64,000 nt of DNA, from the NCBI GenBank assembly GCA_964016885.1, contig OZ024742.1:283960001-284024000 (forward strand). The letters run 5' to 3'. Both the position numbers and the translations under genes were made by a program. Below, piece after piece: positions 35,498 through 40,183 of the stretch. A model generated the notes under the pieces. That model was not told where the DNA came from, searched no databases, and saw only the letters and a program-made list of their open reading frames with translations. This DNA comes from Eledone cirrhosa (taxonomy: Eukaryota). Each line of letters opens with the position of its first letter. Positions within the stretch are counted from its first letter, which is position 1.

Positions 35498-36224
35498 GTA
35501 ATCTTACTTTAGTCATCATCATCATCATCATCATCATCAACATAGTTCAACTGCAGCAGTAACCACAATCCTTTATCACTCATTTTATGTATGTATGTAT
35601 GTATGTATGTATGTATGTATGTATGTATGTATGTATGTATGTATGTATGTATGTATGTATGTGTGTATGTATGTATGTATATGTGTATGTATGTATGTAT
35701 GTATGTATGTACGTACGTATGTATGTATGTATGTATGTATGTATGTATGTATGTATGTGTGTATGTATGTATGTATGTATGTATGTATGTATGTATGTAT
35801 GTATGTATGTATGTATGTATGTATGTATGTATGTCGGGTGACTCTTGGGTGCTACTGGTAACATGTAACCCAGTACAACCTGTCGCATAGACGGGTCGTC
35901 GGCGACTAAACGGGCAACCCCACCAAGTTTACTTGGTGAGGAGGGTGATTTTGGACACCCTGCAGGACAAAAACCAAAACCTGACAAAGGGCGGAAGAAC
36001 TCATACGAGTCAACGGCCATCCAAAAATCTGTAAATATATATACACATGTATACATGTGTATGTATGTATGTATATATATATATATGTGTGTATATATGA
36101 ATATACATGCATGCATGTGCATGTATGTATATATATATATATATATGTATATACATGTATGCATGTATATATATATATATACAATATATTAACAAATGGA
36201 AACTATATTTATAAAACCATATTT

Positions 36225-36288
36225 ATTTCACTATACATATTTCAAGGGCCACCAGAGCAAACTATGGTGCGCTTTCATCAGATAAAAT
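36225..36288 (-). ncRNA. Minimal type-I hammerhead ribozyme with intact core
   Basis: ATTTTAT-CTGATGA-AAGCGCACCA..TGGTGGCCCTT-GAAA-TATGTA-TA-GTGAAAT. Confidence 0.78.
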
Positions 36289-38760
36289 ATAATATAGGTT
36301 AGTTTTATAAATAAATATTGACATACCCTTAAAAAATGCAACCATTCTGGTTGGAATCTCCTGGATAGTGGAGTTATTAGATTTATTGTTTGTTTATTAT
36401 GCAAATTAGTGTCGGAAAGGTTTAAAAACAGTATATTTAAATTAAACCGTTGGAATAGGGAAAAAAGAGAAAATAAAGAGAAAAAAACGAAAGAAAGAAA
36501 GAAACCTGAGTATATTTTAGTGAGAGAGAATAGCGTAATTTTGAGAGAAGAGGCGAAGAAATAAATATGGCGTGGATGAATACCGTAAGATGGATAAACA
36601 ATAATTGTTTCTACTTTAGGCACAAGGCCAGCAATTACCCAGTTCATTACTGGTACTTTATTTTATCGACCCCGTAAGGATGAAAGGCAAAGTCAACCTC
36701 GGCGGGATTTGAACTCAGATCGTAAAGGGACAAACAATAATAATAACCAATAACAGATAATAATAAAGATGGATAAACAATAATAAAGTTGAAGAATTTA
36801 TCTAATGTTTAATTAATAAATTTGATTAAATGTTTAATTAATAATTTATCAATTCAAACCGTAGTTTAAATGTTTAAATGTGTATGTTATATTATTAAAG
36901 TTGAGACCTATATATTATTATTAAAGAATATATATTATTAAAAAATATGTTATTATTACAAAACCATATATAATTTTATTATTTATTATTAATTCTTAAA
37001 AAAAATTTGTAAGTTTAAAATATCCGAATATTTCTAAGCTCATGGAATTTCTGAGAGTTTACAGAAGAATAATCCCTTATTTGTAATAGCAGTAGAGCGT
37101 AAAGGAAATTGCTAGCGATTTATTAATAATTTAGATAGCTCTAAGGATTAAATGCTATAAAGTTAAGATGTTAAAACATTTTAATTATCCATTTTAATAA
37201 TGTAATTAGAGTATGAATTTTATGTTATTTTATAGCAAGTTATAAATTCATAACTCCAACCTGTTATACAGTTATGACTGTTAAAAACATAAATTTGTTT
37301 GCTATAACGTGTTAACATTTAAAAATTCATTCATTGGAATATATCCAAAGCATAAACCATAAAAAAATCTTTCATAAGAGTATATCTGTAGAATATATTT
37401 AAAGTATAAATTTTATATATATATATAAACATTTTGACATACATATACATACACATGCACATATATATATATATACATCAAGCATTTGAAAAATATATAA
37501 ATACAAAATATACAATATAAAATATGAAATATGAATTATAATTTAAATTATGAATTATGAATTCTTTGTACCCATCATAGAAATTTTCAGAAAAAACTCC
37601 TTCTTCAAATCTTTCAGTACGTTTATCAAGAAAAGTTTTTCAAGAAAAAATCCTTTCAAGATAGTTATAAGCAATCATATGAAGGAATCCAATGAATTAT
37701 CGATAGGTTTAATAAAGATGAGTTATGTATTACAATTTATATATATATTTAAACGTTGAGTTCAATCTATGATTGCAAGAACTGAAAAGATTACTTCTTA
37801 AATTAACAGAATTTTTACTATTAAAAAGTAATCTTTTTACTATTAAAAAGTAATCTTTTCAGTTCTTGCAAACTACAGGTGAAGTCATTCTTTTCCTTTT
37901 TTCAAATATTCCTAACTGTACCAAGGATTTCACACATTTTCCAATATATATATATATATATATATATATATATATATATATATATATATATATATATATA
38001 TATATATAGAGAGAGAGAGAGAGAGAGAGAGAGAGAGAGAGAGAGAGAGAGCGTTTGTTTTTGAGTGTGGAACGGTCAAACATTTATTTACTTCAATGAC
38101 AACAAAGATTATTACATTTCATACGAAACAACAATTATTCAAAAGCAACAGATAAATTTATTCAACAACAAAAAAACAGCGATAAATCTTTTTTAAAACA
38201 TCTCTCAACGAACGTGGAAGAAAGAAGTATCAATTTATTTACTATACACAATAATATACTCTATGGGTTCACTAAACCTGCTAGAAACAGCAGCTAACTC
38301 TCCCCCATATCTCACCCCTCCCTACTGTTTTAAATTTAGAAAACACACATTAGACAACCATGCAGAACAACTCCATCGCAGCTCTGTTGTTCGGCTGGCA
38401 TCGTCTACGCGCGTGTTGCGCAAGTACTGTGAAACAATAAATTTCAATACTTCTTTGCACAGAGATAATATCCATAGGCGAAACTACAATTGTCACTGCT
38501 GACGCAGCTCCTGCTTCGGCAGTCCAGGTCTGCAATTCATTCACCCAGTGCCTGGCAGACAAAAAAGTGCTGCAATAAAATGGGTGGTGCAACCTAACTT
38601 TGGTAACTTACTGACCCCGAGCAACGCCGGGCTTTAATGCTAGTTTACATAATAAACCAACAATAAATCTAATAACTCCAACATCCAGGAGATTCCAACC
38701 AGAATGGTTGCATTTTTTAAGGGTATGTCAATATTTATTTATAAAACTAACCTATATTAT

Positions 38761-38824
38761 ATTTTATCTGATGAAAGCGCACCATAGTTTGCTCTGGTGG
38801 CCCTTGAAATATGTATATTGAAAT
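38761..38824 (+). ncRNA. Minimal type-I hammerhead ribozyme with intact core (sense to the host pre-mRNA)
   Basis: ATTTTAT-CTGATGA-AAGCGCACCA..TGGTGGCCCTT-GAAA-TATGTA-TA-TTGAAAT. Confidence 0.75.
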
Positions 38825-40183
38825 AAATATGGTTTTATAAATATAGTTTCCATTTGTTAATATATTGTATATTTACTCCAATAATTTGTTGAGTGCTTTA
38901 TATCAGTTATAAAAATATTTTGCTTGTTGTATCCCAACAAATTAAATATAACCTCTACATATATATATATATATATATATATATATATGTGTGTGTGTAT
39001 GTGTGTGTGTGTGTGTGTGTGTGTGTGTGTGTGTGTGTGTGTATACATGTATGCATGTGCATGTATATATATATATATATATATATATGTATATATATAT
39101 ATATATATATATATATATATATATATATATATATATATATATATATATATATATATATATATATATATATATATATATATATGTATATATACATTTATAC
39201 ATGTATATATATATGTATATACATATACATGTATGCATGTGTATGTACTGTATATGCGCGGGGACATAGAAATAATCGGGCTGGATGCCCGATCACGCAG
39301 TTAAACCACTGGGAGTGAAGAGCCCCTAGCCCTTGTCATGGCATTCTTCTAGGAGAAGGTAACTCAGGAAACTGGAATAACTCCGACATAAAACCTGCGG
39401 CTCAGTAGTTACCGATGACGTTGATCTTTTCTTCTTTTCGGGTTATAGCTACTGTCGCTCAGAGAGTGGGATTGGCTCAGTGCACAGTCTTTCTTCACTT
39501 GAAAAAATCTTCACGCACAGGCATTGCACGATAGAATTAATTGATCATTATTAATAATGTTATATCGTGCAATGGCCATACTCGATAACGAAGGGGCAGC
39601 CATCATGTATGTATGTATGTGTGTATATGCATGCTGTATGTATATATGTATGTATGTATGTCTCTCACTCCACAACCTCCCTAAAAAAAGGATATATATA
39701 TATATATATACACATTCACACACACATACAAAAGACGACATAACTACATTTTATCCCCCCCCCCTCCCCCCTCACACACCTACACACACACACACACACA
39801 CACACACACACACACACACACACACACACACACACGCACACGCACACGCACACGCGCGGCATTGTTTCTTCATAACTTGCCTAATATTTGGTAGAGATAC
39901 AGTTATGAATGTGCAGATTACGATTATATTTATAAAATTAAATAACATTTATGAATTTTCGGTCTTTACCAGAAGTTGTATATGATCTTAAAACAAAGGA
40001 TTACCAATACATGCATTTGCCTGTAACCTATACATAAATCATGTATTTAGTACTCGTTACTTAATGAGCAGTTTGAAATGGAGACTACATATCACATATA
40101 GCCTGTCTATTTCCGATTTTGCACGGGCCGGGTCACATCCAAGAAAATTGTATCATATATATTTGTTTCTCCTTTGTATGAAG

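Follow-up and report, generated by a model that had tools for sequence, protein, structure and literature searches.

The window analysed here comprises 64,000 nucleotides (nt) of the Eledone cirrhosa genome (assembly GCA_964016885.1, contig OZ024742.1, positions 283,960,001 to 284,024,000 of the forward strand), and the locus of interest lies at 36174–38960 of this stretch, where two inverted arms each carry a hammerhead ribozyme motif. We consider it highly probable that the locus is a dead composite insertion of a Penelope-like element (PLE), made up of two 5′-truncated copies that stand head to head and whose 3′ ends, each with a minimal hammerhead, form the arms. A repeat search returned a single long inverted repeat at the locus that is not a microsatellite, with arms at 36174–36409 and 38640–38875 that are 236 nt long, 97% complementary and separated by 2230 nt. 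On the outward-running strand, both arms begin the motif with an A/U-rich 5′ strand, to which are joined CUGAUGA, a stem that is imperfect over its ~10 positions and capped by a 10-nt loop, GAAA, UAUGUA, and UA, and the core is then followed by the complementary A/U-rich 3′ strand of helix I. An initial annotation, made from the sequence of the window, had described inverted arms with intact hammerhead cores, and in this respect it was accurate (CUGAUGA...GAAA...UA in each arm). The locus is not symmetric: the right side runs on for 85 nt past the arm (38876–38960), as in most other copies. On its inner side (38643/38644), the right arm is bounded by a Helitron-like repeat, unrelated to it, whose 3′ end lies there. 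The locus and its flanks are made up as follows.

35586–36019, no strand: host repeat, left half; continuous match in paralogous copies L074–L084
36020–36173, no strand: TA/TG-rich target tract on the left; expanded when compared with the ~70 nt at empty paralogous sites
36174–36409, minus strand: left arm; tailless 3′ end of the PLE copy on the minus strand, abutting (TA)n; end ambiguous by ~3 nt
36218–36297, minus strand: left-arm hammerhead motif; core intact, G at 1.1, predicted cut between 36232 and 36231, 106.3 bits with the covariance model
36410–37825, minus strand: 3′ untranslated region (UTR) of the left PLE copy and the last ~35 codons of its open reading frame (ORF; about 37705–37822); 5′-truncated at 37825
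36606–36720, no strand: short interspersed-repeat segment within the 3′ UTR; present in PLE copies L004, L046, and L053 and not in L044, L045, L047, and L049
37826–37880, no strand: snap-back at the 5′ break of the left copy; ~55 nt, inverted duplicate of 37770–37825
37881–37943, no strand: filler of 63 nt, without a match in PLE loci or family-B loci
37944–38052, no strand: (AT)n(AG)n microsatellite; the (AG)n portion belongs to family B
38008–38643, plus strand: family B, 3′ part (~600 nt) of a high-copy repeat with Helitron-like ends; bounds the right arm
38644–38875, plus strand: right arm; 3′ end of the PLE copy on the plus strand (38640 is the start in the inverted-repeat search)
38752–38831, plus strand: right-arm hammerhead motif; core intact, U at 1.1, 104.8 bits with the covariance model
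38876–38960, plus strand: tail of 85 nt, an alternative, longer 3′ end of the element, on the right side only; contains a small hairpin, TTGTTG..CAACAA
38961–39250, no strand: (TA)n(TG)n-rich target tract, right side; from sequence and paralogue comparison
39251–39661, no strand: host repeat, right half; from paralogue comparison

The arms match the 3′ ends of an ORF-bearing Penelope-like element

The 3.0-Gb assembly was searched with sequences from the locus, and several of the counts given here are of first-look candidates. At least 1,477 such candidates were obtained with the right arm, the best of them 97% identical. Two 34-mers that span the junction of the arm with the tail and of the arm with (TA)n had 1,032 and 1,360 exact matches in the genome, respectively, and the reversed control of each had 0. 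Comparison of 28 loci with the window revealed that the tail is common to many copies and that the others stop, like the left arm of the window, at arm position 236.

Degenerate ORFs were present in the 10-kb stretches around longer copies, on the strand from which the hammerhead reads in sense. One 276-amino acid (aa) ORF piece returned 57,731 first-look candidates in the genome, and open frames of up to 776 aa were seen. The best frame inspected (L070:2982–5213, L numbers denoting the loci retrieved) encodes 743 aa on the same strand as the sense hammerheads and has 103 homologues at 31–42% identity. An AlphaFold model of the 743-aa ORF, computed from a 29-sequence alignment, had a predicted local distance difference test (pLDDT) score of 84.6, and a Foldseek search with this model returned telomerase reverse transcriptase (RT) first (9swn_A, E 1.4e-8; also 3du5_A and 6zd1) and then other RTs. 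YxDD is present in 28 of the 29 sequences (the 743-aa ORF and 28 homologues). As judged from the fold of the model, the ORF of the element is one that encodes a telomerase-like RT.

Section 11 of Craig et al. (2021) (PMC8557442), which is the part of that paper used here for the Hydra clade of PLEs, defines the clade by DKT in place of DKG, RWK, a CxCx5C linker, and CxxC and CxH around the E/N of the endonuclease. Among the same 29 sequences, DKT was found in 27, RW[KRH] in 26, CxCx5C in 23, CxxC..E in 28, and CxH in 28, and the likeness to the clade as described there extends to insertion into (TA)n and to the presence of a hammerhead. In contrast to that description, L070 has RWR rather than RWK, and its element is longer than the <3 kb stated, as the repeat period in L070 is ~3.9 kb (a 2.2-kb ORF and ~1.3 kb to the next arm). 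Further, the Atlas neighbours of the 743-aa ORF carry the HTH_animal, DUF8422, GIY-YIG, and RVT_1 families, and an IVY...YVG pattern occurs in the ORF and in 17 of the 29 sequences. By these motifs, the element would be an endonuclease-bearing (EN+) PLE of the Hydra type.

In L070, an arm with its tail ends 44 nt upstream of the ORF, a second arm lies ~1.3 kb downstream, and every hammerhead match is on the ORF strand. This order of arm, ORF, and arm corresponds to the layout of PLEs, in which the ORF stands between two pseudo-long terminal repeats (pLTRs). In the window, 36174–37825 is collinear with L044–L059 at 88–95% identity, the end of the 743-aa ORF (L070 5097–5193) matches 37725–37822, and the plus-strand copy on the right consists of arm and tail only (38644–38960). 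The Penelope origin that had been proposed for the arms is thus borne out by collinearity with ORF-bearing PLE copies, and, on the sequence comparisons made here, the window arms are 3′ ends (the pLTR region) of PLE copies and not the ends of a dedicated non-coding unit. The initial annotation had also seen no recognisable ORF, which holds for the interior in that no ORF of note was found there (22 stop-to-stop frames of ≥60 aa, nearly all of them microsatellite artefacts) and fails in that the last ~35 codons of the element ORF survive at about 37705–37822 on the minus strand. At the 5′ break of this left copy there is, besides the snap-back, a perfect 22-nt tandem duplication (37812–37833/37834–37855). 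The short interspersed-repeat segment within the 3′ UTR recurs in the window near 35001–35092 and 41420–41486.

Head-to-head pairs carry one tail

Loci were drawn in three samples, the first consisting of 26 loci found with the whole arm and the second and third of 30 loci each from the exact arm/tail and arm/(TA)n junction 34-mers; the two 34-mer samples are unbiased as to copy length. A head-to-head partner was present at 13 of the 26 loci in the whole-arm sample and at 11 of the 30 in each of the junction samples, and half or more of the sampled arms stand alone. When the pairs were scored by script, exactly one tail per pair was found in 13/13, 11/11, and 10/11 cases, respectively, or 34/35 overall. 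The exception, L141, coincides in position with L106, a locus whose copy contains the 34-mer of the arm/tail junction. Because L106/L141 and L113/L151 were sampled twice, the scored pairs amount to about 33 distinct one-tail pairs, and the window is arranged likewise (compare 36174 with 38876–38960 in the list above). Ends with and without a tail occur at near 43:57, a ratio at which no more than about one in two pairs from independent insertions would be discordant.

The gaps between head-to-head partners were mostly 0–91 nt. The inner break points differed in every pair examined, which argues that the hairpins are made anew at each insertion and are not copied as a unit. The 5′ ends of copies, partners included, pile up at arm position 41–51 (18/82; window 38680–38690, mirrored at 36359–36369), which may be the 5′ end of the element RNA or a strong RT stop.

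Arrangements of this kind are described for EN+ PLEs. The sections of Craig et al. that deal with insertions report an inverted 5′-truncated copy beside the element, a tail at one end only, and a bias toward (TA)n, and the portions of Frangieh et al. (2024) (PMC11167929) on an anole PLE in vitro report cutting and extension of both strands of the DNA, with reverse transcription beginning at two adjacent internal sites that lie one tail length apart. The one-tail rule in about 33 pairs fits two RT start sites combined with priming from both strands. As far as these two accounts extend, the family described here resembles published EN+ PLE insertions in its pLTR-ORF-pLTR tandems, head-to-head 5′-truncated pairs, one-sided tail, flanking (TA)n, heavy 5′ truncation, and sense pLTR hammerhead. 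It differs in that the tail measures 85 nt compared with 30–40 nt and in its ~3.9-kb repeat unit and ~1.3-kb 3′ UTR, and the copy in the window is, in addition, broken by the Helitron-like insertion and the snap-back.

The insertion lies in a TA/TG-rich tract of a host repeat

In the paralogues L074–L084, the sequences that match 35586/35800–36100 and 39176–39661 form one uninterrupted stretch. The host repeat is ~1 kb long, and nine paralogous empty sites join both flanks through a TA/TG tract of ~70 nt, so that the earlier placement of the unit within an internal TA/TG-rich tract of another repeat is upheld by the finding of empty sites. In the 28 loci compared with the window, (TA)n or (TG)n of varying length always comes after the end of the family copy, whether or not this end has the tail. 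A clean target-site duplication (TSD) at the window cannot be delimited within the microsatellite; the window site has three occurrences of the motif GCATGTG[CT]ATGTA (one in the left flank and two in the right) compared with zero to one in each of the nine empty paralogous sites, a count that is a hint only.

The hammerhead core is conserved across the family

We aligned 79 arms of 77–100% identity, including diverged subfamilies reached via the ORFs, and obtained 57 distinct rows across the motif. In 47 of these rows, the 12 fixed core letters are all kept, so that the core is conserved in other genomic copies, the absence of which the initial annotation had named as grounds for abandoning the hammerhead. 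Of the 82 columns, 29 have variants that at least three rows share, and no fixed core letter is among these columns (P = 0.004). In both window arms, the core reads C3 U4 G5 A6 N7 G8 A9/G12 A13 A14 A15.1/U16.1 H17. In the right arm, C3 is at 38768, A9 at 38774, G12–A15.1 at 38806–38809, U16.1 at 38816, and A17 at 38817, which puts the predicted cut between 38817 and 38818, in agreement with the cut site proposed earlier.

In the structure as drawn, 96.4% of cells are paired compared with 40–50% when the partners are slid, a fraction that is flattered because the structure was derived from the same sequences. Changes on both sides were seen at four pairs of the 57-row alignment, and helix II shows compensatory change at pair 29-52 (GC in 45 rows, AU in 5, and GU in 2) and pair 30-51 (CG in 48 and UA in 4). 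A covariance model built on this alignment found 87 motifs in 67 sources; the window arms are in its seed, and their scores of 105–106 bits are therefore expected by construction. In the alignment fitted to the model, which is biased by that fitting, both-side changes were found at 10 pairs (37 cells), with eight of the nine pairs of helix II among them. Moreover, in L072 the loop of helix II is cut to 3 nt with the stem retained, and distant relatives combine the same helix I and core with a quite different helix II sequence of the same architecture. Helix II can be drawn without an extra nucleotide between 9 and 10.1, the register with a bulged A pairing worse. Helix I has eight pairs, in which 98.7% of cells are paired; most of these pairs are A-U without variation, and one alternates between G-U and A-U. 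In the right arm, position 1.1-2.1 at the top of this helix is a U-U mismatch. Helix III is an 8-nt palindrome or near-palindrome, namely AUAUGUAU in the window family (palindromic via G-U pairs), AUAUAUAU in 13 of the 57 rows, and AUGCGCAU in a distant family. The claim that the motif is a type-I hammerhead of the minimal form, its tiny helix III being palindromic, is thus supported, and the motif lies in the sense of the element ORF. Taken together, the alignments lead us to hold that the hammerhead-shaped motif is a selected part of the element RNA.

The portions of Cervera and de la Pena (2014) (PMC4209133) that deal with the minimal hammerheads (min-HHR) of metazoan PLEs describe the same CUGANGA/GAAA/UH core, a long helix II (~10 positions), a location in the pLTR, and a helix III reduced to one pair and a palindromic loop, and they report pairs of motifs on opposite strands 100–700 bp apart for Schistosoma. 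The family differs from that description in having A-U at 10.1-11.1, in apparently needing no extra nucleotide between 9 and 10.1, in a helix I of at least 8 bp as opposed to 4–5 bp, and in a helix II mismatch at the fourth pair that is kept across diverged families.

Two minor observations concern the same motif. The fourth pair of helix II is non-pairing (C-C, U-U, or C-U) across differing helix II sequences, for example in L096:1616–1695, L020:2250–2318, and L019:1866–1948. Position 1.1 (T at 38818 on the right and G at 36231 on the left) departs in both window arms from the A of the family (43/44 young copies), which may be coincidence.

Origin of the locus and function of the hammerhead

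We propose that the locus arose in a single integration event, in a scheme drawn from the published in vitro work on another PLE (the portions of PMC11167929 cited above). The endonuclease of the element would cut both strands of a (TA)n target, and each 3′-OH would prime reverse transcription of the element RNA from one of two internal start sites, at arm position 236 (giving no tail) or at position 321 (giving the tail). The two cDNAs would run inwards, the left copy stopping at 37825, and the Helitron-like element would have landed in the right copy later. The hammerhead at the locus would be inherited baggage of the pLTR region. In master elements, its activity would most likely be weak and that of a dimer formed via helix III, the 8-nt palindrome, and its substrate would be element RNA that is multimeric or arises by read-through. 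At the window locus, the hammerhead probably does nothing. From base pairing alone, a transcript across both arms, with its one sense motif and one antisense motif, would be expected to fold into a duplex of ~236 bp and not into a ribozyme. Masking by the antisense arm and editing by ADAR, as suggested in the initial annotation, would be plausible for any such transcript. The feature is real but ordinary, an insertion scar of a known kind of element and not a new unit. A broader proposal, which we put forward tentatively and with limited confidence, is that the small head-to-head copies, of which there are thousands, form a fossil record of PLE integration in vivo, in which the two cut ends would each have primed reverse transcription, from different internal start sites as the single tail per pair implies, on uncut RNA as a template (the 5′ ends of copies are not piled up at the cut site) and the hammerhead would be used otherwise. 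In a transcript through such a pair, the ribozyme would be buried within the ~236-bp duplex.

A number of results weigh against this account or against parts of it. With regard to the locus itself, a private substitution shared by the two window arms was looked for and none was found, and foreign DNA lies between the two window copies; for these reasons, we infer rather than observe a single event at the window. With regard to the protein, Pfam scans of the ORF pieces, the 743-aa ORF, and the homologues gave no RVT_1 match, and the 743-aa ORF had no Pfam match of any kind; Pfam GIY-YIG matched 1 of the 29 homologues, weakly (E 0.0011); the precomputed families PF26215 and PF28514 found no match in direct Pfam scans of the 743-aa ORF and the homologues; and a sequence-profile search of the Protein Data Bank (PDB) with the PLE ORF gave 0 matches. 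A single-sequence AlphaFold model of the C-terminal 144 aa had a pLDDT of 31. Given the negative Pfam and PDB profile searches, the assignment of an endonuclease rests on the motifs and the Atlas neighbours, which weakly suggest that a GIY-YIG endonuclease is present in the 743-aa ORF.

With regard to ribozyme activity, the Rfam hammerhead models, a check that had been suggested for the initial annotation, had no match at the gathering threshold or at E values up to 10, a negative that carries little weight because Rfam also misses a second minimal motif in L070, one with the canonical G10.1-C11.1, that served as a control. The 10.1-11.1 pair is A-U in 52 of the 57 rows and is G-C only in the distant relative L020:2250–2318, whereas the parts of PMC4209133 used here state that G10.1-C11.1 is highly conserved. 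With ViennaRNA, the hammerhead fold has −2.3 to −3.2 kcal/mol compared with −12.6 to −15.0 kcal/mol for the minimum free energy (MFE) fold, a gap of ~10 kcal/mol, and the MFE fold pairs the 5′ strand of helix I with GAAA and helix III. None of the 82 copy 5′ ends lies at the predicted cut (arm position 178–180), and three lie in 177–183. The 34 nt on the 3′ side of the motif (within 38819–38854, and mirrored in the left arm) are nearly invariant across subfamilies of 77–97% identity and are more conserved than helix II, so that conservation alone does not single out catalysis; these 34 nt may be a recognition element near the RT start sites. The published background points the same way, in that the relevant passages of PMC4209133 report that PLE minimal hammerheads cleave poorly, and those of PMC11167929 report, for the anole PLE, that hammerhead mutants are without effect on insertion in vitro and that no RNA-seq ends occur at the cut site. 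On the basis of these sequences and reports, catalysis is likely to be weak and dimer-dependent in the master elements.

The same results bear on a different understanding of the motif, namely that it is not, or is no longer, a working ribozyme and is instead kept as part of an RNA structure recognised by the element protein near the RT start sites. The A-U pair at 10.1-11.1, the catalytic fold that is ~10 kcal/mol worse than its alternative, the lack of copy 5′ ends enriched at the cut, the even more conserved neighbouring 34 nt, and the poor cleavage and hammerhead-independent insertion reported in the passages just cited all speak for it. We nevertheless regard it as rather unlikely, given that no subfamily-level change touches any of the 12 fixed core letters, that helix II covaries, and that helix III stays palindromic through changes from AUAU to GCGC, which would be unexpected for a hairpin that only binds protein.

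With respect to the locus as a whole, its two copies might come from independent insertions of one PLE family, in opposite orientations, within a single (TA)n tract. The strong preference of the family for (TA)n, the lack of a shared private substitution in the window arms, and the presence of microsatellite, 63 nt of filler, and a Helitron-like fragment between the copies are what such a history would leave, but we consider it improbable because one tail was found in 34 of the 35 scored pairs, the 35th being the L106 overlap, as opposed to the half or so expected, and because the gaps between partners are mostly 0–91 nt. The initial annotation had instead proposed a dedicated non-coding, Penelope-dependent unit with inverted hammerhead-bearing termini that is copied as such. 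No ORF lies inside, compact arm-loop-arm copies are common in all three samples, and 10.64898/2026.07.22.740005 describes non-autonomous PLE derivatives (retrozymes); animal non-LTR retrozymes (Cervera and de la Pena 2020, PMC7229834; Li et al. 2026) are likewise non-coding hammerhead DNA thought to derive from PLE pLTRs. Retrozymes, however, are head-to-tail tandems that yield circular RNA, whereas the window motifs are on opposite strands. Such a unit is very improbable here, because the interior of the window locus is the element's own 3′ UTR and ORF end, the remainder being foreign, because the inner break points vary from pair to pair, and because the ends are asymmetric, with one tail, and half or more of the arms are solitary. 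It is scarcely credible, finally, that the locus is a DNA transposon or miniature inverted-repeat transposable element (MITE) with 236-bp terminal inverted repeats (TIRs) and a chance hammerhead-like string, inserted at TA. Its long, near-perfect inverted arms, TA-rich flanks, and lack of an ORF have the appearance of such an element, yet the 85-nt extension lies outside one arm only, about half of the loci have a single arm, an RT-encoding element has the arm as its 3′ end and follows the same strand logic, and the flanking (TA)n varies in length without a fixed duplication.

If the locus is a composite PLE insertion, as we favour, long hammerhead-bearing inverted repeats in this genome are to be annotated as ordinary PLE insertion scars rather than as new foldback elements or genes for ribozymes. 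Being young, highly abundant, and regular, the family offers genomic test material for the model of two start sites and priming from both strands, for which a single in vitro system has so far been the basis, and it could be of use in asking what purpose a hammerhead that is conserved yet apparently weak serves in PLEs. In the portions available of a 2026 octopus repeat annotation (PMC13282606), Penelope families are given, but neither "hammerhead" nor "ribozyme" appears.

Other features of the window

Family B, the 3′ part of which bounds the right arm, has a full length of ~940 nt, an internal (AG)n tract, and 1,759 first-look candidates in the genome at 95–99% identity. Whole copies, examined at 11 loci, start with 5′ TC, end with CTAG 3′, and are situated between an A and a T, often with (TA)n at their flanks; this start, end, and insertion context make up a Helitron-like signature. 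A small GC hairpin precedes the 3′ end of family B, of which the window holds the 3′ part only. For the arm/tail ends of the PLE family, a Helitron reading (asymmetric ends and a hairpin near the 3′ end) had also been entertained and was dropped once ORF-bearing copies were found.

The window consists mostly of transposon ORFs (24136–34650, 53760–58693, and 61299–63179), of which the plus strand has LINE-like RVT_1 and zf-RVT and the minus strand Exo_endo_phos and zf-RVT; an integrase (rve, Integrase_H2C2) is also present. A short repeat in the window is reminiscent of a cephalopod SINE. When 99 of the 167 non-low-complexity window ORFs of ≥80 aa were compared with Pfam, no host exon or non-transposon domain was found, short exons being of a size that would escape such a comparison; the matches obtained were RVT_1, zf-RVT, Exo_endo_phos, rve, and Integrase_H2C2, all of them transposon domains.

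A second Penelope-type remnant lies beside (TA)n with inverted arms at 12345–12419 and 13103–13177 (75 nt, 95% complementary). At 13057–13130, there is a hammerhead-like sequence, CUGAAGAG...CGAAAUAUAUAUA, with G10.1-C11.1 and a decayed helix II (covariance model, 23.6 bits, E 0.05). Close by, 13239–13495 and 13534–13790 form a 257-nt inverted repeat that is 96% complementary, with 38 nt between its arms.

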